NCBI RefSeq assembly: GCF_964355755.1
Contig: NC_092674.1
Location: 17,174,001 to 17,238,000 of the forward strand
Source: Antedon mediterranea
Lineage: Eukaryota; Animalia; Echinodermata
Length of the DNA stretch: 64,000 nt
Direction of reading: 5' to 3'
Shown: one piece after another, positions 504-61,582 of the stretch
Numbering within the stretch: position 1 is the stretch's first letter
Layout of the letters: each line of letters starts with the position of its first letter
The notes under the pieces: model-generated
What the model was told of the DNA's origin: nothing
Database searches by the model: none
What the model saw: the letters and a program-made list of their open reading frames with translations, nothing else
Translations under genes and position numbers: made by a program

Positions 504-656
504 TGTGTTTTGGCCCTTGCAGAGCATCCCAATGTTCCTTTATTATGTTTTCCTTTTACGTGCATGCTGCAACGATGACTTGCCATTCATATTAAATAAC
601 TTTACAACCAATACTTGTTTCCTTGTTTTTGTTTATCGGGCTCACATGTGTCAAAA
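504..656 (+). repeat. Direct repeat copy 2 (putative B2, element terminus) of left element
   Basis: tgtgttttggccc...cacatgtgtcaaaa, immediately followed by satellite sequence gtctatttatatgaaatg. Confidence 0.9.
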
Positions 657-919
657 GTCTATTTATATGAAATGAATGATCAATCATTGAAAAATAATGC
701 TATGCAACTTTGTTTCTGATTTTAAAAAAGGTCCACTTGTTTAGGCCTGACATTTACAACCCTCAAAATATCTCACTTTCAAAAACAATATTTATTTTCA
801 AATAAAAAAAAAATATCCTAACAGGTTCGAACCCACTACTGGGAGCACTCAAAACTGAGCATTACCCGTTATGCCATAAAGTAGTACACGACAGAACAGT
901 TTGTAATAGTCTATTTATA

Positions 920-1811
920 AGTGTATTACGTAATTCATCATTACGTCATAAAAATCATATTAACCTTGTTAAAACCAAAATGGCCAGTTAGCTAAGACGA
1001 CTGAGCGTCGGTCGGTGGAATAGAGTTACGTCCCCCTTTCCACCACACATCTTGAGAAGGCACTAGCAATGCATCTGGCGATGATGTGGTGGAAACGACC
1101 CCAAGGCTGTGGCAGGGCCTTAGTGCTGAGGCAGGGAGAGCACATTTTTAAATTTTTTTTTGGCTTTCGCTACATGTATTTGATCTCGTAAATTTTATGT
1201 TTAGCGCCCTCAATTTAATGTAAAAAGAAATTAATTTATCTTCGTTACGTGTTTAGAAGAGAATGTATGTCTCATCGTAGTTTGGTATGCCGTTTGTTAT
1301 TATGCAAATGAGTTTTTGCAGGTGTAGTGGGAAAGATGGTATTGTTAGTAATTCGCGGTCAACACACCACACTGTCCCGCCACACTGTTGAATTTTGATT
1401 TTGTTAATCAATGTTGCTACATTGGTAGCGAAATGTCCGATTCATGCAAGATATTGTATTGTAATATGTTATAAATAAACATTTATGGATGGTAGTTGGT
1501 GTGTATGGCCGCACCGTCCCAGAATAAACATGTTTTAAACAGATAGTTTGTCTCCGATTATTTTTGTATTGGGTTAATGGAGAGTGAAATAGATCAAATA
1601 TAGAACATTTGCAAAGATGCCGATTTCCAGACCGATTTCGAAACTTAGACTAATTCCGCCGCCGGGCTAGGCCTTAGGCATATACGAAGTCGAAATTTTA
1701 AAGTAGAAAACTCTACCTAAAATTTTGAATTCGCATCTCGATAGTTGAATTTTTAACAAATATCATAAATATCATAGGTGATTATGTATGGTAATAAGTA
1801 TAAGTATAAGT
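920..1811. other. ~0.9 kb non-satellite insertion of unknown class
   Basis: The satellite stops after ...taatagtctatttata (919) and resumes in partly deleted form at ~1812. The insert ends in an (ATAAGT)3-like tail, and TATAAGTG occurs at both borders (916-923, 1805-1812). Confidence 0.75.
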
Positions 1812-6600: not shown

Positions 6601-6710
6601 ACTCAAACCTGGGTATTACCCGTTACGCCACAAACCAGTAGATGACTGAAGAGCTGATAATATGAAATTAATGATCAATCAATGAAAAATAATGCCATGC
6701 AACTTTGTTT
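3640..6710. repeat. Higher-order repeat: 6-monomer block, 2 copies, period ~1536 bp
   Basis: The diagnostic variant gtccctagaggttggaacccactaccg occurs at 3745 and 5281, and the following monomer variants recur in the same order. Boundaries are approximate. Confidence 0.85.
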
Positions 6711-9700
6711 CTAATTTTAAAAAAGGTCCACTTGTTTAGGCCTGACATTTACAACCCTCAAAATAACTCACTTTTAAAAACAATATTTATTTTCAATTAA
6801 AAAAAAAAAGAAAAAATTTCCTAGAGGTCCGAACCCACTACTGCGAGAACTCAAACCTGAGCATTACCCGTTACGCCACAAACCAGTAGATGACTGAAGA
6901 GCTGATAATACTCTATTTATATGAAATAAATAATAAATCAATGAAAAATAATGCCATGCAACTTTGTTTCTGATTTTTAAAAAGGTGCACTTGTTTAAGC
7001 CTGATATTTACAACCCTCAAAATATCTCACTTTCAAAAACAATATTTATTTTCAATTAAAAAAAAAAACAAAAAAAAACGTGGAGGTTCGAACCCTCTAC
7101 TGAGTGCACTCAAACCTGAGCATTACCCGTTACGCCACAAACCAGTAGATAACTGAAGAGCTGATAATAGTCTATTTATATGAAATGAATGATCAATCAA
7201 TGAAAAATAATGTCATGCAACTTTGTTTCTGATTTTAAAAAAGGTCCACTTGTTTAGGCCTGACATTTACAACCCTTAAAATATCTCACTTTCAAAAACA
7301 ATATTTATTTTCAATTTAAAAAAAAAAGAAAAAATATATCCCTAGAAGTTCGAACCCACTATTGAAATCACTCAAGCCTGAGCATTACCCGTTACGCCGC
7401 AAATCAGTAGATGACTGAAGAGCTGATAATAGTCTATTTATATGAAATAGATAATCAATCAATGAAAAATAATACCATGTAAATTTGTTTCTGATTTTTA
7501 AAAAGGTCCACTTGTTTAGGCCTGAATGATCAATCAATGAAAAATAATGTTATGCAACTTTGTTTCTTATTTTAAGAAAGGTCCACTTGTTTAGGCCTGA
7601 CATTTACAACTATAACAATATCTCACTTTCAAAAACAAAATTTATTTTCAAATAAAAAAAAAAAATAGCAATATCCCTAGAAGTTGGAACCCGCTACTGA
7701 GAGCACTCTAACCCGGGTATTACCCGTTACGCCACAAAGCAGTAGATGACTGAAGAGCTGATAATATGAAATTAATGATCAATCAATGAAAAAAAATGCC
7801 ATGCAACTTTGTTTCTGATTTAAAAAAAGGTCCACTTCTTTAGGCATGACATTTACAACCCTCAAAATATCTCATTTTCAAACAAAATATTTATTTTCAA
7901 TAAAAAAAAAAACTTAAAAAAATTACCGTATATGTTCGAACCCACTGCTGAGAGCACTCAAACCTGAGCATTACCCGTTACGCCACAAACCAGTAGATAA
8001 CTGAAGAGCTGATAATAGTCTATTTATATGAAATGAATGATCAATCAATGAAAAATAATGCCATGCAACTTTGTTTCTGATTGAAAAAAAGATCTGTTTG
8101 TTTAGGCCTGACATTTACAACCCTCAAAATATCTCATTTTCAAAAAAAAATTTTCTTTTCAATAAGAAAAAAAAAGCAATATCCGTAGAGGTTGGAACCC
8201 GCTACTGAGAGCACTCAAACCTGGGTATTACCCGTTACGACACAAACCAGTAGATGACTGAAGAGCTGATAATATGAAATGAATGATCAATCAATGAAAA
8301 ATAATGTTATGCAACCTTGTTTCTGATTTTAAAAAAGGTCCACTTGTTTAGGCCTGACATTTACAACTATAACAATATCTCACTTTCAAAAACAATATTT
8401 ATTTTCAAATAAAAAAAAAAGAAAATAAATATCCCTAGAAATTCGAACCCACTATTGAAATCACAAGAACCTGAGCATTACCCGTTACGCTACAAACCAG
8501 TAGATGACTGAAGAGCTGATATTACTCTATTTATATGAAATAAATAATAAATCAATGAAAAATAATGCCATGCAACTTTGTTTCTGATTTTAAAAGAGGT
8601 CCACTTGTTTAGGCCTGACATTTACAACCCTCAAAATAACTCACTTTCAAAAACAATATTTATTTTCAATTAAAAAAAAAAAGAAAAAATTTCCCAGAGG
8701 TTCGAACCCACTACTGCGAGAACTCAAACCTGAGCATTACCCGTTACGCCACAAACCAGTAGATGACTGAAGAGCTGATAATACTTTATTTATATGAAAT
8801 AAATAATAAATCAATGAAAAATAATGCCATGCAACTTTGTTTCTGATTTTTAAAAAGGTGCACTTGTTTAAGCCTGATATTTACAACCCTCAAAATATCT
8901 CACTTTCAAAAACAATATTTATTTTCAATTAAAAACAAAAAACAAAAAAAAAACGTAGAGGTTCGAACCCACTACTTAGTGCACTCAAACCTGAGTATTA
9001 CCCGTTACGACACAAACCAGTAGATAATCGAGGAGCTGATAATAGTCTATTTATATGAAATTAATGATCAATCAATGAAAAATAATGCTATGCAACTTTG
9101 TTTCTGATTTTTAAAAAGGTCCACTTGTTAAGGCCTGACATTTACAACTATAACAATATCTCACTTTCAAAAAAAATATTTATTTTCAAATAAAAAAAAA
9201 AAAGCAATATCCCTAAAAGTAGGAACCCGCTACTGAGAGCACTCAAACCTGGGTATTACCCGTTACGCCACAAACCAGTAGATGACTGAAGAGCTGATAA
9301 TATGAAATTAATGATCAATCAATGAAAAATAATGCCATGCAACTTTGTTTCTGATTTTAAAAAAGGTCCACTTCTTTAGACCTGACATTTACAACCCTCA
9401 AAATATCACATTTTCAAACAAAATATTTATTTTCAATTAAAAAAAAAAGAAAAAAGAAATATCCCTAGAAATTCGAACCCACTATTGAAATCACACGAAC
9501 CTGAGCATTACCCGTTACGCTACAAACCAGTAGATGACTGAAGAGCTGATATTACTCTATTTATATGAAATAAATAATAAATCAATGAAAAATAATGCCA
9601 TGCAACTTTGTTTCTGATTTTAAAAAAGGTCCACTTGTTTAGGCCTGATATTTACAACTCTCAAAATATCTCACTTTCAAAAACAATATTTATTTTCAAT

Positions 9701-10689
9701 TTAAAAAAAAAAAATATTCCTAGAGGTTCGAACCCACTACTGAGAGAACTCAAACCTGAGCATTACCGGTTACGCCACAACCCAGTATATGAATGGAGAG
9801 CTAATAATAGTCTATTTATATGAGATGAATGATCAATCAATGAAAAATAATGTTATGCAACTTTGTTTCTGATTTTAAAAAAGGTCCACTTTTTTAGGCC
9901 TGACATTTACAACCCTCAAAATATATCATTTTCAAAAACAATATTTATTTTCAATAAAAAAAAAAAAAGAAAAAAAAATACCCGTATAGGTTCGAACACA
10001 CTGCTGAGAGCACTCAAACCTGAGCATTACCCGTTACGCCACAAACCAGTAGATGACTGAGGAGCTGATAATATTCTATTTATATGAAATTAATGATCAA
10101 TCCATGAAAAATAATGCCATGCAACTTTGTTTCTGATTTTAAAAAAGGTCCACTTGTTTAGGCCTGACATTTACTACACTCAAAATATCACTTTTTCAAA
10201 AAAAATATTTATTTTCAATTTAAAAAAAAAAAAAATAAAAATATCCCTAGAGGTTCGTCCCACTACTCAGAGCACTCAAACCTGAGCATTACCCGTTACG
10301 CCACAAACCAGTAGATGACTGAAGAGCTGATAATAGTCTATTTATATGAAATGAATGATCAATCAATGAAAAATAATGTCATGCAACTTTGTTTCTGATT
10401 TTAAAAAAGGTCCACTTGTTTAGGCCTGACATTTACAACTATAACAATATCTCACTTTCAAAAACAATATTTATTTTCAAATAAAAAAAAAAGAAAAAAA
10501 ATATCCCTAGAAGTTCAAACCCACTATTGAAATCACTCAAACCTGAGCATTACCCTTACGCCGCAAACCAGTAGACGACTGAAGAGCTGATAATAGTCTA
10601 TTTATATGAAATAGATGATCAATCAATGAAAAATAATGCCATGCAACTTTGTTTCTGATTTTAAAAAAGGTCCACTTGTTTAGGCCTGA

Positions 10690-13080
10690 CATTTACAACC
10701 CTTAAAATATCTCACTTTCAAAAACAATATTTATTTTCAATTAAAAAAAAAAAAGAAAAAAAATAACTGTATATGTTCGAACCCACTGCTGAGAGCACTC
10801 AAACCTGAGCATTACCCGTTACGCCACAAACCAGTAGATAACTGAAGAGCTGATAATAGTCTATTTATATGAAATGAATGATCAATCAATGAAAAATAAT
10901 GCCATGCAACTTTGTTTCTGATTGAAAAAAGGATCTGTTTGTTTAGGCCTGACATTTACAACCCTCAAAATATCTCATTTTCAAAAAAAAATTTTCTTTT
11001 CAATAAGAAAAAAAAAGCAATATCCGTAGAGGTTGGAACCCGCTACTTAGAGCACTCAAACCTGGGTATTACCCGTTACGACACAAACCAGTAGATGACT
11101 GAACAGCTGATAATATGAAATGAATGATCAATCAACAATATTTATTTTCAAATAAAAAAAAAAGACAATAAATATCCCTAGAAATTCGAACCCACTATTG
11201 AAATCATTCGAACCTGAGCATTACCCGTTACGCCGCAAACCAGTAGATGACTGACGAGCTTATAATAGTCTATTTATATTATGAGATAGATGATAAATCA
11301 ATGAAAAATAATGCAATGCAACTTTGTTTCTGATTTTAAAAAAGGTCCACTTGTTTAAGCCTGACATTTACAACCCTCAAAATATCTCACTTTCAAAAAC
11401 AATATTTATTTTCAATTAAAAAAAAAATTAAAAAAATACCCGTGTAGGTTCGAACCCACTGCTGAGAGCACTCAAACCTGACCGTTACCCGTTACGCCAC
11501 AAACCAGTAGATGACTGAAGAGCTGATAATAGTCTATTTATATGAAATGAATGATCAATCAATGAAAAATAATGCCATGAAACTTTGTTTCTGATTGAAA
11601 AAAAGATCTGTTTGTTTAGGCCTGACATTTACAACCCTCAAAATATCTTATTTAAAAAGAAATATTTATCTTCAATTAAAAAAAAAATAAATAAAAATAA
11701 CCTTAGAGGTGCGAACCCACTACTGCGAGCACTCAAACTTGAGCATTACTCGCTACGCCACAAACCGGCAGATGACTGAAGAGCTAATAATACTCTATTT
11801 ATATGAAATGAATAATAAATCAATGAAAAATAATGCCATGCAACTTTGTTTCTGATTGAAAAAAAGATCCGCTTGTTTAGGCCTGACATTTACAACCCTT
11901 AAAATATCTCACTTTCAAAAACAATATTTATTTTCAATTAAAAAAATAAAAAAAATAACTGTATATGTTCGAACCCACTGCTGAGAGCACTCAAACCTGA
12001 GCATTACCCGTTACGCCACAAACCAGTAGATAACTGAAGAGCTGATAATAGTCTATTTATATGAAATGAATGATCAATCAATGAAAAATAATGCCATGCA
12101 ACTTTGTTTCTGATTGAAAAAAAGATCTGTTTGTTTAGGCCTGACATTTACAACCCTCAAAATATCTCATTTTGAAAAAAAAAATTTCTTTTCAATAAGA
12201 AAAAAAAAAGCAATATCCGTAGAGGTTGGAACCCGCTACTGAGAGCACTCAAACCTGGGTATTACCCGTTACGACACAAACCAGTAGATGACTGAAGAGC
12301 TGATAATATGAAATGAATGATATATCAACAATATTTATTTTCAAATAAAAAAAAAAGAAAATAAATATCCCTAGAAATTCGAACCCACTATTGAAATCAT
12401 TCGAACCTGAGCATTACCCGTTACGCCGCAAACCAGTAGATGACTGACGAGCTTATAATAGTCTATTTATATTATGAGATAGATGATAAATCAATGAAAA
12501 ATAATGCAATGCAACTTTGTTTCTGATTTTAAAAAAGGTCCACTTGTTTAGGCCTGACATTTACAACCCTCAAAATATCTCACTTTCAAAAACAATATTT
12601 ATTTTCAATTAAAAAAAAAAATAAAAAAAATACCCGTGTAGGTTCGAACCCACTGCTGAGAGCACTCAAACCTGACCGTTACCCGTTACGCCACAAACCA
12701 GTAGATGACTGAAGAGCTGATAATAGTCTATTTATATGAAATGAATGATCAATCAATGAAAAATAATGCCATGAAACCTTGTTTCTGATTGAAAAAAAGA
12801 TCTGTTTGTTTAGGCCTGACATTTACAACCCTCAAAATATCTTATTTAAAAAAAAATATTTATCTTCAATTAAAAAAAAAATAAATAAAAATAACCTTAG
12901 AGGTGCGAACCCACTACTGCGAGCACTCAAACTTGAGCATTACTCGCTACGCCACAAACCAGCAGATGACTGAAGAGCTAATAATACTCTATTTATATGA
13001 AATGAATAATAAATCAATGAAAAATAATGCCATGCAACTTTGTTTCTGATTGAAAAAAAGATCCGTTTGTTTAGGCCTGA
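10690..13080. repeat. Tandem duplication with period ~1194 bp including an internally deleted monomer
   Basis: Identical pseudo-ORFs at 11585 and 12779. A shared ~85 bp deletion (…atcaacaatattt…) lies at ~11130 and ~12325, and both copies share the tatattatgagataga variant. Boundaries are approximate. Confidence 0.85.
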
Positions 13081-13465
13081 CATTTACAACCCTCAAAATA
13101 TCTCATTAAAAAAAAAATATTTATCTTCAATTAAAAAAAAAAAAGAAAAGAGAAATATCCCTAGAGGTTCGAACCCACTACTGAGAGCACTCAGACCTGA
13201 GTATTACACGTTACGCCACAAACCAGTAGATTACTGAGGACCTGATAATAGTCTATTTATATGAAATTAATGATCAATCAATGAAAAATAATGTTATGCA
13301 ACTTTGTTTCTGATTTTTAAAAAGGTCCACTTGTTTAGGCCTGACATTTACAATCTCACTTTAAAAAACAATATTTATTTTCAATTTAAAAAATAAAAAA
13401 ATAAAAATAACCTTAGAGTTGCGAACCCACTACTGCGAGCACTCAAACTTGAGCATTACCCGCTA

Positions 13466-14071
13466 GCGATTTTTTTTTTCGTACATAAGTTGGGGACCCC
13501 CCCCCCCCCTCATGAAAGGTCACAAAATAAAAATGAATAATTCATCAGTTCAATTTGTTGTTCCGTGTGCACCCAAGCGTATAGCAACAAGAAGTGATCA
13601 CACGCACAACTAAACTGCGATACGATTCTTTCTACAGTAGGCCTAGGATTCTAGGTCAATTCACGTGATTGCCTTCGCGCACTCTTCTTAATCTTCACAC
13701 ACACACACCACTATGCAAAATGTGTCGAGGCTAATCGACAGCTAGGCAAGATATTAAACTAAGTACTGTAGTTAATTGGACATAGCCCAAAGAAAGCTTA
13801 GACCCACACGAATAAAAAATGTGTATAATTTGTGTACTGTAATTTTTTAATTCTGCTATTTTATTATCAAACAATATGCATGTACTCAAAGGAACTTTAA
13901 AAATGCGCGTATATGAACACATGAGATGGGAAGATTAGACCCACGAGAATAAAAAATGTATTTTTGTGTAATGTTTATTGTTTAATTTTGTCATACCTAA
14001 CACACACACGTCACACACACCCACACAGCTACTATTAGAATAGACATGGGTTTAGAGACTAATAATTAGGC
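13466..14071. other. ~606 bp non-satellite insertion of unknown class
   Basis: Begins after cattacccgcta with a T10 run followed by a long C run. Contains (CA)n tracts and an internal direct repeat TTAGACCCAC..GAATAAAAAATG (~13799, ~13936). The satellite resumes at acctgagcattaccc (14072). Confidence 0.8.
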
Positions 14072-14829
14072 ACCTGAGCATTACCCATTACGCCACAAAC
14101 CAGTAGATGACTGACGAGCTGATAATATGAAATTAATGATCAATCAATGAAAAATAATGCCATGCAACTTTGTTTCTGATTTTCAAAAAGGTCCACTTCT
14201 TTAGGCCGGACATTTACAACCCTCAAAATATCTCATTTTCAAAAAAAATATTTATTTTCAATTAAAAAATAAAAGAAAAAAGAAATATCCCTAGAGGTTC
14301 GAACCCACTACTGAGAGCACTCAGACCTGAGTATTACCCGTTACGCCACAAACCAGTAGATAATTGAGGAGCTGATAATAGTCTATTTATATGAAATTAA
14401 TGATCAATCAATGAAAAATAATGCCATGCAACTTTGTTTCTGATTTTAAAAAAGGTCCACTTGTTTAGGCCTGACATTTACAATCTCACTTTCAAAAACA
14501 ATATTTATTTTCAATTTAAAAAATAAATAAATAAAAATATCCTTAGAGGGGCGAATCCACTACTGCGAGCACCCAAACTTGAGTATTACCCGTTACGCCA
14601 CAAACCAGTAGATAATTGAGGAGCTGATAATAGTCTATTTATATGAAATTAATGATCAATCAATGAAAAATAATGCCATGCAACTTTGTTTCTGATTTTA
14701 AAAAAGGTCCACTTGTTTAGGCCTGACAATTACAACCCTCAAAATATCTCACTTTCAAAAACAATATTTATTTTCAATTAAAAAAAAAAAGAAAAAAAAA
14801 TACCCGTGTAGGTTCGAACCCACTGCTGA

Positions 14830-24965: not shown

Positions 24966-25089
24966 GAACTCAAACCTGAGCATTACTGGTTACGCCACAA
25001 CCCAGTAGATGAGTGAAGAGCTGATAATAGTCTATTTATATGAAATGAATGATCAATCAATGAAAAATAATGTTATGCAACTTTGTTTC

Positions 25090-34400: not shown

Positions 34401-35275
34401 GCAACTTTTTTTCTGATTGAAAAAAAATCCGTTTGTTTAGGCCTGACATTTAAAACCCTCAAAATATCTCATTTTCAAAAAAAAAAATTATTTTCAATAA
34501 GAAAAAAAAAGCAATATCCCTAGAGGTTGGAACCCGCTACTGAGAGCACTCAAACCTGGGTATTACCCGTTACGCCACAAACTAGTAGATGACTGACGAG
34601 CTGATAATATGAAATTAATGATCAATCAATGAAAAATAATGCCATGCAACTTTGTTTCTGATTTTAAAAAAGGTCCACTTCTTTAGACCTGACATTTACA
34701 ACCCTCAAAATATCTCATTTTCAAAAAAGATATTTATTTTCAATTAAAAAAAAAAGAAAAAAGAAATATCACTAGAGGTTCGAACCCACTACTGAGAGCA
34801 CTCATACCTGAGTATTACCCGTTACGCCACAAACCAGTAGATAATTGAGGAGCTGATAATAGTCTATTTATATGAAATTAATGATCAATCAATGAAAAAT
34901 AATGCCATGCAACTTTGTTTCTGATTTTAAAAAAGGTCCACTTGTTTAGGCCTGACAATTACAACCCTCAAAATATCTCACTTTCAAAAACAATATTTAT
35001 TTTCAATTAAAAAAAAAGAAGAAAAAAACATACCCGTGTAGGTTCGAACCCACTGCTGAGAGCACTCAAACCTGAGAATTACCCGTTACGCCACAAACCA
35101 GTAGATGACTGAAGAGCTGATAATACTCTATTTATATGAAATAAATAATAAATCAATGAAAAATAATGCCATGCAACTTTGTTTCTGATTTTAAACAAGC
35201 ACGAATGTGCAATACTCGGGGTACAGCGAAAGAAGCTGTATACAGACGTATACAGTTAGAAAGTTAAAGAAAAAT

Positions 35276-35347
35276 AGGTTTCGCCAGGGCTCGAACCGGG
35301 ACCTTCTGCGTGTTAAGCAGACTTGACAACCACTACACTACGAAACC
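35276..35347 (-). tRNA. tRNA-Val(AAC)-like gene or young pseudogene inside the HINE
   Basis: Minus strand reads GGTTTCG TA GTGT AGTGGTTG TCAA G TCTGC TTAACAC GCAGA AGGT CCCGG TTCGAGC CCTGG CGAAACC T, followed by ATTTTT. The 7 bp acceptor stem and 5 bp anticodon stem are perfect and the anticodon is AAC. The D stem has mismatches and the T stem has one. Confidence 0.8.
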
Positions 35348-35557
35348 TCTTACATTGAAATTGTGGGTTACAGAAAGTTTTTTAATCCATTTAAATTACA
35401 AATAAATGGTAATAAACACAAAGCAAAATAAACATGTGTAAAAGTGATAATTACCGATTACACAAAATAAGTATTTAAAAAAATAATAATAAGATATACT
35501 GTGTATAATTATCATATTGCGTATACAGTACTTTTCATCATAAAGTTTAAAAAAAAA

Positions 35558-35629
35558 GGTTTAGCCCGGGCTCGAACCAGGTACCTTCTGCGTATTGAGC
35601 AAACGTGATAACCACTACGCCAAGAAGCC
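35558..35629 (-). pseudogene. Degenerate tRNA-Val-derived copy inside the HINE
   Basis: Minus strand reads GGCTTCT TG GCGT AGTGGTTA TCAC G TTTGC TCAATAC GCAGA AGGTA CCTGG TTCGAGC CCGGG CTAAACC, followed by a long T run. A and B boxes are intact, while the acceptor stem and anticodon loop are damaged. Confidence 0.8.
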
Positions 35630-38600
35630 GCATATAACCATATAACTACATAACGCTGTGGTGTGTGTCACACATTGCGGATTCTTAATTAAACAAATTA
35701 ATTAACAAAAAATTAAAAATCCGGCTCTATAGCTTTGAGGACATGTCCCTGTAGTATGTTCATGCCAAATCCCAGCTCAATACTACAACTAATAAGGGAG
35801 GAGTAGTACTTTAAAAATCGCACTTTTTACTCAATAGTGTCCAGATGGTGGAGGAGAAAATGAGTAAGTACTAGACTCGGGTACCCCGAGTAAAAAGGTC
35901 CACTTGTTTAGGCCTGATATTTACAACCCTCAACAAATATCTTACTTTCAAAAACCATATTTATTTTCCATTTAAAAAAAAAAAGAAAAAAAATATCCAT
36001 AGAGGTTCGACCCACTACTCAGAGCACGCAAACCTGAGCATTACCCGTTACGCCACAAACCAGTAGATGACTGAAGAGCTGATAATAGTCTATTTATATG
36101 AAATGAATGATCAATCAATGAAAAATAATGCCATGCAACTTTGTTTCTGATTTTAAAAAAGATCCACTTGTTTAGGCCAGACATTTACAACCCTCAAAAT
36201 ATCTCATTTTCAAACAAAATATTTATTTTCAATAAGAAAAAAAAAGCAATATCCCTAGAGGTGGGAACACGCTACTGAGAGCACTCAAACCTGGGTATTA
36301 CCCGTTACGCCACAAACCAGTAGATGACTGAAGAGCTGATAATATGAAATTGATGATCAATCAATGAAAAATAATGCCATGCAACTTTGTTTCTGATTTT
36401 AAAAAAGGTCCACTTGTTTAGGCCTGACATTTACAACCCTCAAAATCTCTCACTTTCAAAAACAATATTTATTTTCAATTAAAAAAAAAAGAACAAAAAT
36501 ACCCGTATAGGTTCGAACCCACTGCTGAGAGCACTCAAACCTGAGCATTACCCGTTACGCCACAAACCAGTAGCTGACTGAAGAGCAGATAATATAAAAT
36601 TAATGATCACTCAATGAAAAATAATGCCATGCAACTTTGTTTCTGATTTTAAAAAAGGTTCACTTCTTTAGGCCTGACATTTTCAACCCTCAAAATATCT
36701 CACTTTCAAAAACAATATTTATTTTCAATTTTAAAAAAAAAGAAAAAATATATCCCTAGAAGTTCGAACCCACTATTGAAATCACTCAAGCCTGAGCATT
36801 ACCCGTTACGCCGCAAATCAGTAGATGACTGAAGAGCTGATAATAGTCTATTTATATGAAATAGATGATCAATATATGAAAAATAATGCCATGCAACTTT
36901 GTTTCTGATTTTTAAAAAGGTCCACTTTTTTAGGCCTGACATTTACAACGCTCAAAATATCTCATTTTCAAAAACAATATTTATTTTCAATGAAAAAAAA
37001 AGAAGAAATAAAATACCCGTATAGGTTCGAACCCACTTCTGAGAGCACGCAAACCTGAGCATAACCCGTTACCCCACAAACCAGTAGATGACTGAAGAGC
37101 TGCTAATACTCTATTTATATGAAATAAATAATAAATCAATGAAAAATAATGCCATGCAAGTTTGTTTCTGATTTTAAAAAAGGTCCACTTGTTTAGGCCT
37201 GATATTTACAACCATCAAAATATCTCACTTTCAAAAACAATATTTATTTTCAATTAAAAAAAAAAAACAAAAAAAACGTAGAGGTTCGAACCCACTACTG
37301 AGTGCACTCAAACCTGAGTATTACCCGTTACGACACAAACCAGTAGATAATTGAGTAGCTGATAATAGTCTATTTATATGAAATTAATGCAACTTTGTTT
37401 TTTTGTTTAGGCCTGACATTTACAACCCTCAAAATATCTCAATTTCAAAAACAATATTTATTTCCAATTAAAAAAAAAAGAAAAAAAATATCCCTAGAAG
37501 TACGAACCCACTATTGAAATCACTCAAACCTGAGCATTACCCGTTACGCCGCAAACCAGTAGATGACTGTAAAGCTGATAATAGTCTATTTATAAGAAAT
37601 GAATGATCAATCAATGAAAAATAATGCCATGCAACTTTTTTTCTGATTTAAAAAAACATCCGTTTGTTTAGGCCTGACATTTAAAACCCTCAAAATATCT
37701 CATTTTCAAAAAAATATTTTCTTTTCAATAAGAAAAAAAAAGCAATATCCCTAGAAGTTGGAACCCGCTACTGAGAGCACTCAAACCTGGGTATTACCCG
37801 TTACGCCACAAACCAGTAGATGACTGAAGAGCTGATAATATGAAATGAATGATCAATCAATGAAAAATAATGTTATGCAACTTTGTTTCTGATTTTTAAA
37901 AAGGTCCACTTGTTTAGGCCTGACATTTACAACTATAACAATATCTCACTTTCAAAAACAATATTTATTTTCAAAAAAAAAAAAAAAGCAATAAACCTAA
38001 AAGTTGGAACCCGCTACTGAGAGCACTCAAACCTGGGTATTACCCGTTACGCCACAAACCAGTAGATGACTGAAGAGCTGATAATATGAAATTAATGATC
38101 AATCAATGAAAAATAATGCCATGCAACTTTGTTTCTGATTTAAAAAAAGATCCGTTTGTTTAGGCCTGACATTTACAAGTATAACAATATCTCACTTTCA
38201 AAAACAATATTTATTTTCAAAAAAAAAAAAGAAGAAAAAAGAGGAATATCCCTAGAAGTTGGAACCCGCTACTGAGAGCACTCAAACCTGGGTATTACCC
38301 GTTACGCCACAAACCAGTAGATGACTGAAGAGCTGATAATATGAAATTAATGATCAACCAATGAAAAATAATGCCATGCAACTTTGTTTCTGATTTTAAA
38401 AAAAGGTCCACTTCTTTAGGCCTGACATTTACAACCCTCAAAATTTCTCACTTCCAAAAACAATATTTACTTTCAATTAAAAAAAAAAAGAAAAAAATAT
38501 TCCTAGAGGTTCGAACTCACTACTGAGAGAACTCAAACCTGAGCATTACCGGTTACGCCACAACCCAGTAGATGAGTGAAGAGCTAATAATAGTCTATTT

Positions 38601-41600: not shown

Positions 41601-42363
41601 AATATCCCTAAAGGTTGGAACCCGCTACTGAGAGCACTCAAACCTGGGTATTACCCGTTACGCCACAAACTATTAGATGACTGACGAGCTGATAATATGA
41701 AATTAATGATCAATCAATGAAAAATAATGCCATGCAACTTTGTTTCTGATTTTAAAAAAGGTCCACTTCTTTAGACCTGACATTTACAACCCTCAAAATA
41801 TCTCATTTTCAAAAAAGATATTTATTTTCAATTAAAAAAAAAAAGAAAAAAGAAATATCACTAGAGGTTCGAACCCACTACTGAGAGCACTCATACCTGA
41901 GTATTACCCGTTACGCCACAAACCAGTAGATAATTGAGGAGCTGATAATAGTCTATTTATATGAAATTAATGATCAATCAATGAAAAATAATGCCATGCA
42001 ACTTTTTTTCTGATTTTAAAAAAGGTCCACTTGTTTAGGCCTGACAATTACAACCCTCAAAATATCTCACTTTCAAAAACAATATTTATTTTCAATTAAA
42101 AAAAAAAAGAAAAAAACATACCCGTGTAGGTTCGAACCCACTGCTGAGAGCACTCAAACCTGAGAATTACCCGTTACGCCACAAACCAGTAGATGACTGA
42201 AGAGCTGATAATACTCTATTTATATGAAATAAATAATATATCAATGAAAAATAATGCCATGCAACTTTGTTTCTGATTTTAAACAAGCACGAATGTGCAA
42301 TACTCGGGGTACAGCGAAAGAAGCTGTATACAGACGTATACAGTTAGAAAGTTAAAGAAAAAT

Positions 42364-42435
42364 AGGTTTCGCCAGGGCTCGAACCGGGACCTTCTGCGTG
42401 TTAAGCAGACTTGACAACCACTACACTACGAAACC
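42364..42435 (-). tRNA. tRNA-Val(AAC)-like copy in second HINE
   Basis: Same sequence as 35276-35347. Confidence 0.8.
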
Positions 42436-42645
42436 TCTTACATTGAAATTGTGGGTTACAGAAAGTTTTTTAATCCATTTAAATTACAAATAAATGGTAA
42501 TAAACACAAAGCAAAATAAACATGTGTAAAAGTGATAATTACCGATTACACAAAATAAGTATTTAAAAAAATAATAATAAGATATACTGTGTATAATTAT
42601 CATATTGCGTATACAGTACTTTTCACCATAAAGTTTAAAAAAAAA

Positions 42646-42717
42646 GGTTTAGCCCGGGCTCGAACCAGGTACCTTCTGCGTATTGAGCAAACGTGATAAC
42701 CACTACGCCAAGAAGCC
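42646..42717 (-). pseudogene. Degenerate tRNA-Val-derived copy in second HINE
   Basis: Same sequence as 35558-35629. Confidence 0.8.
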
Positions 42718-45700
42718 GCATATAACCATATAACTACATAACGCTGTGGTGTGTGTCACACATTGCGGATTCTTAATTAAACAAATTAATTAACAAAAAA
42801 TTAAAAATCCGGCTCTATAGCTTTGAGGACATGTCCCTGTAGTATGTTCATGCCAAATCCCAGCTCAATACTACAACTAATAAGGGAGGAGTAGTACTTT
42901 AAAAATCGCACTTTTTACTCAATAGTGTCCAGATGGTGGAGGAGAAAATGAGTAAGTACTAGACTCGGGTACCCCGAGTAAAAAGGTCCACTTGTTTAGG
43001 CCTGATATTTACAACCCTCAACAAATATCTTACTTTCAAAAACCATATTTATTTTCCATTTAAAAAAAAAAAGAAAAAAAATATCCATAGAGGTTCGACC
43101 CACTACTCAGAGCACGCAAACCTGAGCATTACCCGTTACGCCACAAACCAGTAGATGACTGAAGAGCTGATAATAGTCTATTTATATGAAATGAATGATC
43201 AATCAATGAAAAATAATGCCATGCAACTTTGTTTCTGATTTTAAAAAAAGATCCACTTGTTTAGGCCAGACATTTACAACCCTCAAAATATCTCATTTTC
43301 AAACAAAATATTTATTTTCAATAAGAAAAAAAAAGCAATATCCCTAGAGGTTGGAACACGCTACTGAGAGCACTCAAACCTGGGTATTACCCGTTACGCC
43401 ACAAACCAGTAGATGACTGAAGAGCTGATAATATGAAATTGATGATCAATCAATGAAAAATAATGCCATGCAACTTTGTTTCTGATTTTAAAAAAGGTCC
43501 ACTTGTTTAGGCCTGACATTTACAACCCTCAAAATCTCTCACTTTCAAAAACAATATTTATTTTCAATTAAAAAAAAAAGAACAAAAATACCCGTATAGG
43601 TTCGAACCCACTGCTGAGAGCACTCAAACCTGAGCATTACCCGTTACGCCACAAAACAGTAGCTGACTGAAGAGCTGATAATATAAAATTAATGTTCACT
43701 CAAGGAAAAATAATGCCATGCAACTTTGTTTCTGATTTTAAAAAAGGTTCACTTCTTTAGGCCTGACATTTTCAACCCTCAAAATATCTCATTTTCAAAA
43801 AAAATATTTATTTTCAATTAAAAAAAAAGAAAAAAGAAATATCCCTAGAGGTTCGACCCACTACTCAGGCACTCAAACCTGAGCATTACCCGTTACGCCA
43901 TCAACAAGTAGATGACTGAAGAGCTGATAATAGTCTATTTATATGAAATAAATAATAAATCAATGAAAAATAATGCCATGCAACTTTGTTTCTGATTTTA
44001 CAAAAAGGTCCACTTGTTTAGGCCTGACATTTACAACCCTCAAAATATCTCACTTTCAAAATCAATATTTATTTTCAATTTTAAAAAAAAAGAAAAAATA
44101 TATCCCTAGAAGTTCGAACCCACTATTGAAATCACTCAAGCCTGAGCATTACCCGTTACGCCGCAAATCAGTAGATGACTGAAGAGCTGATAATAGTCTA
44201 TTTATATGAAATAGATGATCAATATATGAAAAATAATGCCATGCAACTTTGTTTCTGATTTTTAAAAAGGTCCACTTTTTTAGGCCTGACATTTACAACG
44301 CTCAAAATATCTCATTTTCAAAAACAATATTTATTTTCAATGAAAAAAAAAGAAGAAATAAAATACCCGTATAGGTTCGAACCCACTTCTGAGAGCACGC
44401 AAACCTGAGCATAACCCGTTACCCCACAAACCAGTAGATGACTGAAGAGCTGCTAATACTCTATTTATATGAAATAAATAATAAATCAATGAAAAATAAT
44501 GCCATGCAAGTTTGTTTCTGATTTTAAAAAAGGTCCACTTGTTTAGGCCTGATATTTACAACCATCAAAATATCTCACTTTCAAAAACAATATTTATTTT
44601 CAATTAAAAAAAAAAAACAAAAAAAACGTAGAGGTTCGAACCCACTACTGAGTGCACTCAAACCTGAGTATTACCCGTTACGACACAAACCAGTAGATAA
44701 TTGAGTAGCTGATAATAGTCTATTTATATGAAATTAATGCAACTTTGTTTTTTTGTTTAGGCCTGACATTTACAACCCTCAAAATATCTCAATTTCAAAA
44801 ACAATATTTATTTCCAATTAAAAAAAAAAGAAAAAAAATACCCGTATAGGATCGAACCCACTGCTGAGAGCACTCAAACCTGAGCATTACCCGTTACGCA
44901 ACAAACCAGTAGATGACTAAAGAGCTGATAATAGTCTATTTATATGAAATGAATGATCAATCAATTAAAAATAATGCCATGCAACTTTGTTTCTGATTGA
45001 AAAAAAGATCCGTTTGTTTAGGCCTGACATTTACAACTATAACAATATCTCACTTTCAAAAACAATATTTATTTTCAACAAAAAAAAAGAAAAAAAAAGC
45101 AATATCCCTAGAAGTTGGAACCCGCTACTGAGAACACTCAAACCTGGGTATTACCCGTTACGCCACAAACAAGTAGATGACTGAAGAGCTGATAATATGA
45201 AATTAATGATCAATCAATGAAAAATAATGCCATGCAACTTTGTTTCTGATTTTAAAAAAGGTCCACTTCTTTAGACCTGACATTTACAACCCTCAAAATA
45301 TCTCATTTTCAAACAAAATATTTAGTTTCAATTAAAAAAAAAAGAAAAAAGAAATATCCCTAGAGGTTCGAACCCGCTACTAAGAGCACTCAAACCTGGG
45401 TATAACCCGTTACGCCACAAACCAGTAGATGACTGAAGAGCTGATAATATGAAATGAATGATCAATCAATGAAAAATAATGTTATGCAACTTTGTTTCTG
45501 ATTTTAAAAAAGGTCCACTTGTTTAGGCCTGACATTTACAACTATAACAATATCTCACTTTCAAAAACAATATTCATTTTCAAATAAAAAAAAAAAATAG
45601 CAATATCCCTAGAAGTTGGAACCCGCTACTGAGAGCACTCTAACCTGGTTATTACCCGTTACGCCACAAACCAGTAGATGACTGAAGAGCTGATAATATG

Positions 45701-48700: not shown

Positions 48701-50211
48701 CAAACTTGAGCATTACCCGCTACGCCACAAACCAGTAGATGACTGAAGAGCTAATAATACTCTATTTATATGAAATGAATAATAAATCAATGAAAAATAA
48801 TGCCATGCAACTTTGTTTCTGATTTTAAAAAAGGTCCACTTGTTTTGGCCTTGCATTTACAACCCTCAAAATATCTCACTTTCAAAAACAATATTTATTT
48901 TCAATTAAAAAAAAAAGAATAAAAATACCCGTACAGTATCGAACCCACTGCTGAGAGCACTCAAACCTGAACATTACCCGTTACGCCACAAACCATGAGA
49001 TGACTGAAGAGCTGATAATAGTCTATTTATATGAAATGAATGATCAATCAATGAAAAATAATGGCATGCAACTTTGTTTCTGATTGAAAAAAAGATCCGT
49101 TTGTTTAGGCCTGACATTTACAACTATAACAATATCTCACTTTCAAAAACAATATTTGTTTAAAAAAAAAAAAAAGAAAAAGCAATTTCCCTAGAAGTTG
49201 GAACCCGCTACTGAGAGCACTCAAACCTGGGTATTACCCGTTACGCCACAAACCAGTAGATGACTGAAGAGCTGATAATATGAAATTAATGATCAATCAA
49301 TGAAAAATAATTCCATGCAACTTTGTTTCTGATTTTAAAAAAAGGTCCACTTCTTTAGGCCTGACATTTACAACCCTCAAAATATCTCACTTCCAAAAAC
49401 AATATTTATTTTCAATTAAAAAAAAAAAGAAAAAAATATTCCTAGAGGTTCGAACTCACTACTCAGAGAACTCAAACCTGAGCATTACCGGTTACGCCAC
49501 AACCCAGTAGATGAGTGAAGAGCTGATAATAGTCTATTTATATGAAATAGATGATCAATCAATGAAAAATAATGCCATGCAACTTTGTTTCTGATTTTAA
49601 AAAAGGTCCACTTGTTTAGGCCTGGCATTTACAACCCTCAAAATATCTCACTTTCAAAAACAATATTTATTTACAATTAAAAAAAAAAAAAAAAATAACC
49701 GTATATGTTCGAACACACTGCTGAGAGCACTCAAACCTGAGCATTACCCGTTACACCACAAACCAGTAGATAACTGAAGAGCTGATAATAGTCTATTTAT
49801 ATGAAATGAATGATCAATCAATGAAAAATAATGTTATGTAACTTTGTTTCTGATTTTTAAAAAGGTCCACTTGTTTAGGCCTGACATTTACAACTATAAC
49901 AATATCTCACTTTTAAAAACAATATTTATTTTCAAATAAAAAAAAAAGAAAAAAAATATCCCTAGAAGTTCGAACCCACCATTGAAATCACTCAAACCTG
50001 AGCATTACCCGTTACGCCGCAAACCAGTAAATGACTGAAGAGCTGATAATAGTCTATATATATCAAATAGATGATAAATCAAGGAAAAATAATGCCATGC
50101 AACTTTGTTTCTGATTTTAAAAAAGGTCCACTTGTTTAGGCCTGACATTTACAACCCTCAAAATATCTCACTTTCAAAAACAATATTTATTTTCAATTAA
50201 AAAAAAAGTAG

Positions 50212-50323
50212 AAAAAATACCCGTGTAGGTTCGAACCCACTGCTGAGAGCACTCAAACCTGAGCATTACCCGTTACGCCACAAACCAGTAGATGACTGAA
50301 GAGCTGATAATAGTCTATTTATA
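50212..50323 (-). promoter_or_regulatory. Representative tRNA-like Pol III cassette of the satellite monomer (present, with variants, in most monomers)
   Basis: On the minus strand: TATAAATA (50323-50316), A box TGGCGTAACGG (50280-50270), D-arm GCGT-AACGGGTA-ATGC, B box GGTTCGAACC (50237-50228), and a T6 run (50217-50212). A-to-B spacing equals that of a tRNA with a 4-nt variable loop. Confidence 0.7.
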
Positions 50324-56300: not shown

Positions 56301-59300
56301 TACCACCCTCAAAATATCTCATTTTCAAAAGAAATATTTATTTTCAATAAGAAAAAAAAAGCAATATCCCTAGAGGTTGGAACCCGCTACTAAGAGATCT
56401 CAAACCTGGGTATTACCCGTTACGCCACAAACCAGTAGATGACTGGAGAGCTGATAATAGTCTATTTATATGAAATTAATTATCAATCAATGAAAAATAA
56501 TGCCATGCAACTTTGTTTCTGATTTTAAAAAAAGGTCCACTTCTTTAGGCCTGACAATTACAACCCTCAAAATATCTCATTTTCAAAAACAATATTTATT
56601 TTCTATTTAAAAAAAATAATAATAAAAATATCTCTAGAGGTTCGACCCACTACTCAGAGCACTCAAACCAGAGCATTACCCGTTACGCCACAAACCAGTA
56701 GATGACTGAAGAGCTGATAATAGTCTATTTATATGAAATGAATGATCAATCAATGAAAAATAATGCCATGCAACTTTGTTTCTGATTTTAAAAAAAGGTC
56801 CACTTGTTTAGGCCTGGCATTTACAACCCTCAAAATATCTCACTTTCAAAAACAATATTTACTTTCAATTAAAAAAAAAAAAGAAAAAAAATATCCCAAG
56901 AGGTTCGAACCTACTACTGAGAGAACTCAAACCTGAGCATTACCGGTTACGCAATAAACCAGTAGATGACTGAAGAGATCATAATAGTCTATTTATATGA
57001 AATGAAAGATCAATCAATGTCAAATGATTTTATGCAACTTTGTTTCTGATTTTTAAAAAGGTCCACTTGGTAAGGCATGACATTTACAACCATAAAAATA
57101 TCTCACTATCAAAAACAATATTTATTTTCAATTAAAAAAAAAATAAAAAAATATTCCTAGAGGTTCGAACCCACTACTGAGAGAACTCAAACCTGAGCAT
57201 TACCGGTTACGCCACAACCCAGTAGATGAATGAAGAGCTAATAATAGTCTATTTATATGAAATGAATGATCAATCAATGAAAAATAATGTTATGAAACTT
57301 TGTTTCTGATTTTAAAAAAGGTCCACTTGTTTAGGCATGACATTTACAACCCTCAAAATATATCATTTTCAAAAACAATATTTATTTTCAATAAAAAAAA
57401 AAAAAATACCCGTATAGGTTCGAACCACTGCTGAGAGCACTCAAACCTGAGCATTACCCGTTACGCCACAAACCAGTAGATGACTGAAGAGCTGATAATA
57501 GTCTATTTATAAGAAATGAATGATCAATCAATGAAAAATAATGCCATGCAACTTTTTTTCTGATTGAAAAAAACATCCGTTTGTTTAGGCCTGACATTTA
57601 AAACCCTCAAAATACCTCATTTTCAAAAAAAAAAATTATTTTCAATAAGAAAAAAAAAGCAATATCCCTAGAGGTTGGAACCCGCTACTGAGAGCACTCA
57701 AACCTGGATATTACCCGTTACGCCACAAACCAGTAGATGACTGAAGAGCTGATAATATGAAATTAATGATCAATCAATGAAAAATAATGCCATGCAACTT
57801 TGTTTCTGATTTTAAAAAAGGTCCACTTCTTTAGGCCTGACATTTACAACCCTCAAAATATCTCATTTTCAACAAAATATTTTCTTTTCAATAAGAAAAA
57901 AAAAGCAATATCCCTAGAAGTTGGAACCCGCTATGGAGAGCACTCAAACCTGGGTATTACCCGTTACGCCACAAACCAGTAGATGACTGAAGAGCTGATA
58001 ATATGAAATGAATGATCAATCAATGAAAAATAATGTTATGCAACTTTGTTTCTGATTTTTAAAAAGGTGCACTTGTTTAGGCCTGACATTTACAACTATA
58101 ACAATATCTCACTTTCAAAAACAATATTTATTTAAAAAAAAAAAAAAAAAAGCAATATCCCTAAAAGTTGGAACCCGCTACTGAGAGCACTCAAACCTGG
58201 GTATTACCCGTTACGCCACAAACCAGTAGATGACTGAAGTGCTGATAATATGAAATTAATGATCAATCAATGAAAAATAATGCCATACAACTTTGTTTCT
58301 GATTTTAAAAAAGGTCCACTTCTTTAGACCTGACATTTACAACTTTCAAAATATCTCATTTTCAAACAAAATATTTATTTTCAATTAAAAAAAAAAGAAA
58401 AAAGAAATATCCCTAGAGGTTCGAACCCGCTACTAAGAGCACTCAAACCTGGGTATTACCCGTTACGCCACAAACCAGTAGATGACTGAAGAGCTGATAA
58501 TATGAAATGAATGATCAATCAATGAAAAATAATGTTATGCAACTTTGTTTCTGATTTTAAAAAAGGTCCACTTGATTAGGCCTGACATTTACAACTATAA
58601 CAATATCTCACTTTCAAAAACAATATTTATTTTTAAATAAAAAAAAAAATAGCAATATCCCTAGAAGTTGGAACCCGCTACTGAGAGCACTCTAACCTGG
58701 GTATTACCCGTTACGCCACAAACCAGTAGATGACTGAAGATCTGATAATATGAAATTAATGATCAATCAATGAAAAATAATGCCATGCAACTTTGTTTCT
58801 GATTTAAAAAAAGGTCCACTTCTTTAGGCATGACATTTACAACCCTCAAAATATCTCATTTTCAAAAAAAATATTTATTTTCAATAAAAAAAAAAGAAAA
58901 AAGAAATATCCCTAGAGGTTCGAACCCACTACTGAGAGCGCTCAGACCTGAGTATTACCCGTTTCGCCACAAACCAGTAGATGACTGAGGAGCTGATAAT
59001 AGTCTATTTATATAAAATTAATGATCAATCAATGAAAAATAATGCCATGCAACTTTGTTTCTGATTTTAAAAAAGGTCCACTTGTTTAGGCCTGACATTT
59101 ACAACCCTCAAAATATCTCACTTTCAAAAACAATATTTATTTTCAATTTAAAAAAAAAATAAATAAAAATAACGTTAGAGGTGCGAACCCACTACTGCGA
59201 GCACTCAAACTTGAGCATTACCCGCTACGCCACAAACCAGTAGATGACTGAAGAGCTAATAATACTCTATTTATATGAAATAAATAATAAATCAATGAAA

Positions 59301-61582
59301 AATAATGCCATGCAACTTTGTTTCTGATTTTAAAAAAGGTCCACTTGTTTTGGCCTGGCATTTACAACCCTCAAAATATCTTACTTTCAAAAACAATATT
59401 TATTTCCAATAAAAAAAAAAAAAGAATAAAAATACCCGTACAGGATCGAACCCACTGCTGAGAGCACTCAAACCTGAGCATTACCCGTTACGCCACAAAC
59501 CAGGAGATGACTGAAGAGCTGAAAATAGTCTATTTATATGAAATGAATGATCAATCAATGAAAAATAAGGCCATGCAACTTTGTTTCTGATTGAAAAAAA
59601 GATCCGTTTGTTTAGGCCTGACATTTACAAGTAGAACAATATCTCACTTTCAAAAACAATATTTATTTTCAAAAAAAAAAGCAAAAAAAATAAGCAATAT
59701 CCCTAGAAGTTGGAACCCGCTACTGAGAGCACTCAAACCTGGGTATTACCCGTTACGCCACAAACCAGTAGATGACTGAAGAGCTGATAATATGAAATTA
59801 ATGATCAACCAATGAAAAATAATGCCATGCAACTTTGTTTCTGATTTTAAAAAAAGGTCCACTTCTTTAGGCCTGACATTTACAACCCTCAAAATTTCTC
59901 ACTTCCAAAAACAATATTTATTTTCAATTAAAAAAAAAAGAAAAAAATATTCCTAGAGGTTCGAACTCACTACTGAGAGAACTCAAACCTGAGCATTACC
60001 GGTTACGCCACAACCCAGTAGATGAGTGAAGAGCTGATAATAGTCTATTTAAATGAAATAAATGATTAATCAATGAAAAATAATGTTATGCAACTTTGTT
60101 TCTGATTTTAAAAAAGGTCCACTTGTTTAGGCCTGACATTTACAACTATAACAATATCTCACTTTCAAAAACAGTATTTATTTTCAAATAAAAAAAAAAA
60201 GATAAAAAATATCCCTAGAAGTTCGAACCCACTATAGAAATCACTCAAACCTGAGCATTACCCGTTACGCCGCAAACCAGTAGATAACTCAAGAGCTGAT
60301 AATAGTCTATTTATATGAAATGAATGATCAATCAATGAAAAAATAATGCCATGCAACTTTGTTTCTGATTGAAAAAAGATCCATTTGTTTAGGCCTGACA
60401 TTTACAACCCTCAAAATATCTCATTTTCAAAAAAAAATTTTCTTTTCAATAAGAAAAAAAAAAGAAAAATCCCTAGAGGTTGGAACCCGCTACTGAGAGC
60501 ACTCAAACCTGGGTATTACCCGTTACGCCACAAACCAGTAGCTGACTGAAGAGCTGATAATATGAAATTAATGATCAATCAATGAAAAATAATGCCATGC
60601 AACTTTGTTTCTGATTTTAAAAAAGGTCCACTTGTTTAGGCCTGACATTTACAACCCTCAAAATATCTCACCTTCAAAAACAATATTTATTTTCAATTAA
60701 AAAAAAAAAGAAAAAAATATTCCTAGAGGCTCGAACTCACTACTGAGAGAACTCAAACCTGAGCATTACCGGTTACGCCACAACCCAGTAGGTGAGTGAA
60801 GAGCTGATAATAGTCTATTTAAATGAAATAAATGATTAATCAATGAAAAATAATGTTATGCAACTTTGTTTCTGATTTTAAAAAAGGTCCACTTGTTTAG
60901 GCCTGACATTTACAACTATACCAATATCTCACTTTCAAAAACAGTATTTATTTTCAAATAAAAAAAAAGAAAAAAAATATCCCTAGAAGTTCGAACCCAC
61001 TATTGAAATCACTCAAACCTGAGCATTACCCGTTACGCCCCAAACCAGTAGATAACTCAAGAGCTGATAATAGTCTATTTATATGAAATGAATGATCAAT
61101 CAATGAAAAAATAATGCCATGCAACTTTGTTTCTGATTGAAAAAAGATCCATTTGTTTAGGCCTGACATTTACAACCCTCAAAATATCTCATTTTCAAAA
61201 AAAAAATTTCTTTTCAATAAGAAAAAAAAAGCAAAATCCCTAGAGGTTGGAACCCGCTACTGAGAGCACTCAAACCTGGGTATTACCCGTTACGCCACAA
61301 ACCAGTAGCTGACTGAAGAGCTGATAATATGAAATGAATGATCAATCAATGAAAAATAATGCCATGCAACTTTGTTTCTGATTTTAAAAAAGGTCCACTT
61401 GTTTAGGCCTGACATTTACAACCCTCAAAATATCTCACTTTCAAAAACAATATTTATTTTCAATTAAAAAAAAAAGAAAAAAAATAACCGTATATGTTCG
61501 AACACACTGCTGAGAGCACTCAAACCTGAGCATTACCCGTTACACCACAAACCAGTTGATAACTGAAAAGCTGATAATAGTC

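Follow-up and report, generated by a model that had tools for sequence, protein, structure and literature searches.

Tandem repeats that carry a transfer RNA (tRNA)-like RNA polymerase III (Pol III) unit in every monomer have been described mainly from a few amphibians, and it is stated to be unconfirmed whether their origin lay in short interspersed nuclear elements (SINEs) or in tRNA genes themselves (PMC10702118, PMC12054243; all articles are cited here from excerpts of their text). The excerpted text of PMC10702118 lists PolIII/TAN, OAX, Rana/polIII and Hy/polIII as tRNA-like tandem repeats without a confirmed parent SINE, and that of PMC12054243 repeats this account. Rana/polIII of water frogs is very abundant, with a unit of ~250 nt that makes up as much as 10% of the genome (PMC10702118); its tRNA similarity is confined to one ~64-nt stretch, and the excerpts give no matching SINE as known (PMC10702118, PMC12054243). 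PolIII/TAN of the newt Cynops is a tRNA-Glu-derived repeat of ~360 nt whose transcription in vitro was shown and which is titled as retroposition-derived, while Hy/polIII of Hydromantes has a ~200-nt unit and is without a B box (PMC10702118). Here we analyse a window of 64,000 nucleotides from the crinoid Antedon mediterranea (contig NC_092674.1, positions 17,174,001 to 17,238,000), nearly all of which is a satellite array whose monomer carries a TATA element, an A box, a B box and a T run in the arrangement of a tRNA-derived Pol III unit. We propose that the satellite probably descends from a decayed Pol III gene and that most of its copies are now drifting.

The array has the traits of tRNA-derived Pol III tandem repeats, namely a head-to-tail unit in the 200–750-bp range (263 bp, in ~230 copies) and, within every unit, a tRNA-related stretch bearing A and B boxes, and it is best read as a tandem repeat of the Rana/polIII, PolIII/TAN and OAX kind. 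With Rana/polIII it shares a tandem unit of ~250 nt (PMC10702118, PMC12054243), a likeness by description that implies no sequence relation; Rana/polIII is amphibian, whereas the present array is from an echinoderm and the decay of its boxes has been measured. PolIII/TAN and Hy/polIII likewise have a tRNA-like Pol III unit in each monomer of a tandem repeat (PMC10702118). The present array differs from PolIII/TAN in that its TATA-bearing flank points to copying at the DNA level, and in being known from its sequence alone. OAX, or satellite I, of Xenopus is also tandem, with a central tRNA-derived segment, but its unit is longer and it is transcribed and oocyte-activated, whereas the present array has been read only as DNA (PMC10702118, PMC12054243). 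In plants, clusters of Pro, Ile, Gln and Ser-Tyr-Tyr tRNA genes resemble the array in the duplication of Pol III units at the DNA level, each with an upstream A/T element and a downstream T run; these clusters, largely silent in Arabidopsis, encode real tRNAs, whereas the present monomer does not (PMC13437025). The SINE-derived satellites (sSat) of squamates also take their monomer from a Pol III element, one gecko variant consisting of the tRNA part, but their parent SINE is known, whereas the present unit retains its upstream flank and has no identified parent SINE (PMC10702118). No description of this satellite family, or of an echinoderm case, was found in the literature searched, which was mostly open-access and excluded supplementary repeat catalogues.

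Results

Architecture of the satellite array

The satellite occupies positions 657–61582 on the minus strand, nearly the whole window, as ~230 copies of a ~263-bp monomer. Tandem Repeats Finder returned a period of 263 and 229.8 copies over 1822–61583, and BLAST with a monomer probe returned 230 pieces from 677 to 61583; the sequence itself puts the start of the array at 657. A fixed anchor cut the array into 223 intervals, from which 7 interrupted or partial ones were left out, and the remaining 216 monomers were aligned. These have a mean identity to their consensus of 93.8% and a mean pairwise distance of 11.8%. Near-identical monomers recur at offsets of 3, 6, 19–20, 31, 35 and 54 units, indicating that the array was built of irregular block duplications, and a search for a fixed higher-order period across the array monomers found none. 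The array may extend past both of its flanking elements, in which case 657 and 61582 are perhaps not its true ends.

Partial monomers were seen at 7454–7600, 11134–11279, 12327–12472, 37403–37599 and 44753–44949. They comprise a 75-bp duplication and truncated units of ~150 and ~200 bp, some of which were recopied by later block duplication.

Promoter anatomy and resemblance to tRNA

The complete unit can be followed in an example monomer on the minus strand. Its TATA element, TATAAATA, lies at 50316–50323, which is −36 to −29 from the tRNA-equivalent +1. Downstream, the A box (50270–50280) and the B box (50227–50237) sit within a tRNA-like body of ~70 nt (50218–50287) that has relic D and T arms and an unformed anticodon arm, and the first T run (50212–50217), the predicted Pol III terminator, opens a longer T tract. 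Strict matches to the A box occur in 128 of the 216 monomers and to the B box in 83. The consensus of the 216 monomers has no mismatch to the A-box pattern TRGYNNARYGG and one to the B-box pattern GGTTCRANNCC, and the starts of the two boxes are 43 nt apart, exactly as in a tRNA-Val inserted in the window. Dinucleotide shuffles, searched on both strands with spacings of 40–59, produced one box mismatch or fewer in 0 of 20,000 trials and two mismatches in 28, in a test that used general box patterns and that was designed after the sequence had been seen; the margin is nevertheless wide. A first T4 falls 7–24 nt past the B box in every one of the 216 monomers. TATA has been lost through an 11-bp deletion in 60 monomers (28%), corresponding to 5 state changes on the monomer tree. 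In its anatomy the monomer thus matches a tRNA-derived type-2 Pol III unit more closely than chance would allow.

The body itself has largely ceased to look like a tRNA. ARAGORN found only two genes in the window, both tRNA-Val and both within inserts, and Rfam at gathering level returned the same two; at E ≤ 10, Rfam gave ordinary monomers no tRNA match, either in a 1.4-kb stretch or across the window. When G-U pairs are counted, the consensus pairs 5/7 in the acceptor stem (four of these G-U), 4/4 in the D stem and 3/5 in the anticodon stem, and the T stem pairs 4/5 if its loop is taken as one base short. An array of functional tRNAs is therefore not what we see, given that ordinary monomers have no tRNA score and that the anticodon stem pairs only 3/5 in the consensus and 1/5 in a divergent edge copy, the B-type unit described below. 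Folding z-scores of the unit (−1.3 and −0.6) were unremarkable, but a real tRNA-Val gives −1.2, which makes this a weak test.

These results bear directly on the original prediction, made from the same DNA, that TATA, A box, B box and T run follow one another in order and at tRNA spacing without forming a functional tRNA. The order and spacing are exact in the example monomer and were matched by none of the 20,000 shuffles, and the covariance-model comparison that it called for leaves ordinary monomers without a tRNA match. Its statement that the D arm pairs also holds; its description of the other stems as misformed needs refinement, as relic acceptor and T pairing emerges once G-U pairs are counted.

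The further suggestion of a tRNA-Gln(TTG) ancestry for the monomer could not be confirmed. A search pattern that combined the D and T arms of the monomer hit 121 metagenome loci, 23 of which had an ARAGORN call, 11 of them Arg. The pattern is biased, however, and, judging by metazoan Gln sequences, was presumably unable to return a tRNA-Gln. Most of the 121 loci (L003–L120) represent one high-copy, tRNA-like SINE head family from host DNA that is unrelated to the satellite. The tRNA-Val copies of the window align poorly to the monomer.

Conservation of the boxes among copies

Strict A and B boxes occur together in 43 of the 216 monomers, and in 30 they are accompanied by TATA; under loose criteria the corresponding counts are 75 and 60. 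The 30 complete triples compare with ~35 expected had the three features decayed independently, and the intact copies are dispersed along the array without clustering. We counted parsimony changes on a tree of the 174 distinct monomers, comparing 17 informative box positions with base-matched positions. The box positions underwent 67 changes against 69.8 expected (P = 0.45), which divide into 29 against 37.7 for the A box and 38 against 32.3 for the B box, the least protected of the elements tested. Confining the count of box changes to TATA-retaining copies gave 52 against 54 expected. Distinct alleles at box positions numbered 33 against 28.7, and all 13 fixed box positions are intact in 46 of the 216 monomers, where random matched sets average 82. 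As the boxes are kept no better than other parts of the monomer, the majority of copies are probably drifting relics and not working genes.

This outcome separates the two halves of the original interpretation. The tRNA-derived unit stands, although its novelty is reduced by the amphibian Pol III repeats of similar size (PMC10702118, PMC12054243), whereas the working roles assigned to the array were not borne out. A battery of ~200 Pol III mini-genes is hard to reconcile with strict A and B boxes in 43 of 216 monomers, 30 of them with TATA, and with boxes that change at the background rate; the same rate (67 against 69.8, P = 0.45) argues against a selected TFIIIC platform. Boxes mutating like the rest of the monomer had been named in advance as an outcome that would tell against both proposals, and that is what was found.

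Five sequencing runs from two studies were listed, all as contigs and none recorded as RNA, which says nothing for or against expression. We compared four runs (X1–X4), as contigs, with one monomer; three of the runs come from one sample, which may be the source of the window, and contig depth measures abundance only roughly. In DNA-like runs the family is abundant, and it appears to be larger than the single array read here. Other letters make up 9–22% of contig depth at the first A-box base in all four runs. Just 3′ of the B box, the monomer used as reference is probably a minority variant. An exact 20-mer of the monomer gave 0 matches against metagenome contigs. X1 contigs, whose RNA nature is a guess, cover all 30 bins of the monomer. 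Compared with the tRNA-like part, their summed depth is ~5-fold higher at 50163–50180 (in the region 50145–50195, which leads up to the plus-strand A tract), whereas depth is about even in X2–X4. Oligo-dT priming at the plus-strand A tract, or another repeat that shares this stretch, is a possible source of the peak; the contigs carry no strand, ends or level.

Among the CpGs of the example monomer, the two of the A box (50276–50277 and 50271–50272) show few transitions across the copies and that of the B box (50232–50233) mostly changes from G to C. There is no clear sign within the array of methylation-driven decay of monomer CpGs.

A divergent, more tRNA-like unit at the array edge

A single unit at the left edge of the array (813–919, minus strand), which we call B-type, is more tRNA-like than the rest. 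It aligns to the full Rfam tRNA model in the same register, at 19.5 bits (E 0.56), under the gathering score of 29; in three E-value scans of 1.2–1.5-kb stretches, no other monomer gave an Rfam tRNA alignment. Its acceptor stem pairs 6/7, its D stem 4/4 and its T stem 5/5, but its anticodon stem only 1/5. Its leader differs from the consensus at 10 of 27 sites and without an indel, against an array mean of 1.3 and a maximum of 6 differences. By comparison, it shows 0 differences in the 16 positions of TATA plus 8 (Fisher P = 0.007 against the leader), 3 in 54 internal positions (P = 0.0006 against the leader) and 0 in 100 downstream. The three internal B-type alleles are present in none of the 216 monomers.

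TFIIIC positions TFIIIB at Pol III promoters. A leader that is free in sequence but fixed in length suggests selection on a Pol III promoter, of which it is the expected mark; the expectation of a fixed length rests on the placing of TFIIIB by TFIIIC (PMC13437025). Because the B-type unit keeps TATA, the leader length and the internal region while its leader sequence differs, it suggests that the founder lineage was once a working Pol III unit.

The B-type unit is preceded upstream by a non-monomer segment of 899 bp (920–1818), which replaces ~60 bp of monomer spacer without a target duplication. Its junction at the TATA edge recurs as loose ends in X3 and X4, in 10 contigs each, and pieces that end exactly at this junction and carry 8–13 other letters are present in X1, X2 and X4. 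From these we infer a low-copy B-type family, of whose parent the 899-bp segment may be the native flank. The segment has a G+C-rich stretch at ~975–1145 with an 11-bp perfect inverted repeat (1037–1047 and 1085–1095) followed by T runs; positions 955–1150 gave no Rfam match and folded no better than shuffles on either strand (z −0.7 and −1.6). The 60-bp spacer was also compared with the terminal part of the 899-bp segment, but the similarity was not significant (P = 0.27) and homology was set aside.

Elements at the ends of the array

Both ends of the array adjoin elements with direct repeats. On the left (181–656, plus strand), a 151-bp direct repeat (181–331 and 506–656) surrounds a hairpin-rich spacer. 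On the right, a retrotransposon on the minus strand (61583–64000) has a 392-bp direct repeat (61583–61974 and 62338–62729) together with frames for a reverse transcriptase (63381–63998) and an RNase H-like domain (62924–63448), both on the minus strand and with Pfam scores under the curated cut-offs. The best named relative of this reverse transcriptase, at 77%, is from Antedon mediterranea itself, and other matches reach at most 63%. Both flanks resemble the B1-A2-B2 end of split-direct-repeat tyrosine-recombinase retrotransposons (PMC4157794). We infer that the left flank is the terminus of such a split-direct-repeat element and that the right flank is of the tyrosine-recombinase type (Ngaro- or PAT-like), although the window contains no recombinase frame.

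The array breaks at the same four bases at both ends (GTCT on the plus strand), 26–29 bp upstream of the tRNA-equivalent start. The breaks, at 653–660 and 61579–61586, fall just inside TATA, and the flanking elements lie in opposite orientations. That two of two ends should fall by chance at one site of a 263-bp unit is unlikely, and site-specific insertion of tyrosine-recombinase retrotransposons at the array ends is possible. Recombination at a short core would account for the shared end site as well as guidance by factors would. Both long terminal repeat (LTR) and non-LTR elements are described as targeting tRNA genes 4–50 bp upstream, and the targets that DIRS-1 favours are copies of itself (PMC5006619).

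Inserts within the array

An insertion of ~610 bp (13462–14071) interrupts a tRNA-like body and is bounded by a 15-bp duplication (13447–13461 and 14072–14086). Within it are CA-type microsatellite tracts and a C11 run, and close to one end there is a short T tract. Two further inserts, on the minus strand at 35200–35892 and 42288–42979, are duplicates with 1 difference in 692 bp and resemble non-autonomous Helentron-like elements (HINEs). They have 12-bp subterminal inverted repeats and a 3′ hairpin and sit in a T run without a duplication, in agreement with the HINE features described in PMC7492417. Each lies in the orientation of the satellite's tRNA-like unit. The first holds a tRNA-Val(AAC) copy at 35276–35347 and a decayed copy at 35557–35629, and the second holds tRNA-Val copies at 42364–42435 and 42645–42717; the copies within an insert are 281 bp apart, one scoring 47 bits and the other, decayed, 23 bits. 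The inserts are a small independent case of tRNA capture and duplication.

Two origins of the satellite from such elements were considered and rejected. For descent of the monomer from the Val repeat of the HINE-like inserts, the whole-monomer score beat 50 shuffles but the flanks alone did not (P 0.16–0.69). Nor does the satellite look like the central repeat of a Helentron or HINE, as the ends of the array seen here, perhaps not its true ends, adjoin split direct repeats rather than subterminal inverted repeats and a 3′ hairpin.

Discussion

We favour, at a probability of roughly two in three, a reading in which the satellite arose by DNA-level tandem copying of a tRNA-derived Pol III gene, once transcribed and now decayed, together with its flanks, and in which most copies are now drifting. 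The point of departure is a unit with four elements in order at tRNA spacing around a body that no longer scores as a tRNA. Before that, the anticodon arm of a tRNA gene would have been lost although the promoter persisted for a time, in the way of SINE heads. One such unit, complete with TATA, leader and T run, would then have been amplified as DNA, since the upstream TATA and flank would have been absent from an RNA copy. The array grew through irregular block duplication and took up several inserts. In this array, at least, the A and B boxes decay at the background rate and TATA has been deleted in 28% of copies, and the 14–28% of copies that have all elements could still yield some RNA of ~70–80 nt.

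Several observations weigh against the decay of a relic unit. In TATA-retaining copies, TATA itself shows 4 changes against 14.5 expected (P about 0.009, uncorrected, as one of six sets), and in the same copies only one of the 226 windows of 8 nt is more conserved than that of TATA; part of the low count may be an artefact of deleted lineages dropping out at those sites. The D stem falls slightly under expectation (15 against 25 changes, P = 0.08–0.11), and G/C sites change less within the tRNA-like body than outside it (3.9 against 5.8, P = 0.02), whereas A/T sites change more (3.1 against 2.2, P = 0.006). The box comparison covers one array and would miss selection that acts on a few working copies or on the array in its entirety. 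In addition, the contrast shown by the B-type unit rests on one full copy and could be a gene-conversion patchwork.

A rival idea is that the array works in the manner of OAX, its intact minority (30–60 of 216) being transcribed by Pol III in some tissue or stage, for example in oocytes, and being kept by selection on total output. Such a battery would make an RNA of ~70–80 nt and would have more intact monomers elsewhere in the genome. The consensus has every promoter part intact, as do 30 (strict) to 60 (loose) copies, TATA substitutions are rare, and there are precedents in the newt PolIII/TAN, transcribed in vitro, and in OAX, titled as oocyte-activated (PMC10702118). However, complete units are not in excess of independence (30 against 35), the B box is if anything more variable than the background (38 against 32) and the intact copies are scattered and unclustered, and we consider a working battery unlikely, if a serious contender. 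The B box is also the difficulty for a structural platform, in which the array would bind TFIIIC, and perhaps TFIIIB, without making RNA, and would act as a boundary, condensin-loading or centromere-flanking element. Although a B box survives in 83–94 of the 216 monomers, the family is abundant in DNA-like runs and both array ends break at the same site by TATA, as factor-guided insertion predicts, the B box is the least protected element tested, a regular higher-order period was not found and the three internal inserts sit at other monomer positions. On balance this role seems very improbable.

A distinctly unlikely reading is that the B type is a still-working, low-copy small-RNA family that has kept its acceptor, D and T arms and lost its anticodon arm, that the satellite is its runaway copy, that intact monomers load TFIIIC and TFIIIB, and that tyrosine-recombinase retrotransposons home on the TATA edge. 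If true, this would be targeting of Pol III genes by a retrotransposon class that is not listed as doing so in the excerpted text of PMC5006619. Retroposition enters in another way if a dispersed SINE supplied the monomer, as its head with the flanks of a single master copy, and tandem amplification came later; the boxes would then record selection for retroposition and not for a cellular RNA. Perfect A and B boxes on a scrambled cloverleaf are typical of SINE heads. Satellites derived from SINEs also exist in geckos, one of them with the tRNA part as its unit (PMC10702118), but here the tRNA-like body is followed at once by a T run, at which Pol III would terminate without reaching a SINE body or tail, and TATA and the leader length are retained in two diverged contexts, which leaves a SINE head barely plausible. 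Finally, no monomer has a significant Rfam tRNA score, as would be expected if the boxes were accidents in an ordinary satellite; we give this practically no credence, since 0 of 20,000 shuffles match and the best Rfam match near the B-type copy is to tRNA, over the full model and in the same register.

Given that the choice between a SINE and a direct tRNA-gene origin is stated as unconfirmed for the repeats described so far, this array is informative because it presents the unit entire, upstream TATA included, has a more tRNA-like relative at one edge and offers copies enough to measure the protection of the boxes. The internal promoter was not protected after amplification. The array thus supports, in an invertebrate, a DNA-level route from a tRNA gene through a Pol III relic to a satellite. 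Should its intact copies turn out to be transcribed or bound by TFIIIC, the array would amount to a large natural sink for Pol III and a system in which to ask whether satellites can act through Pol III factors.

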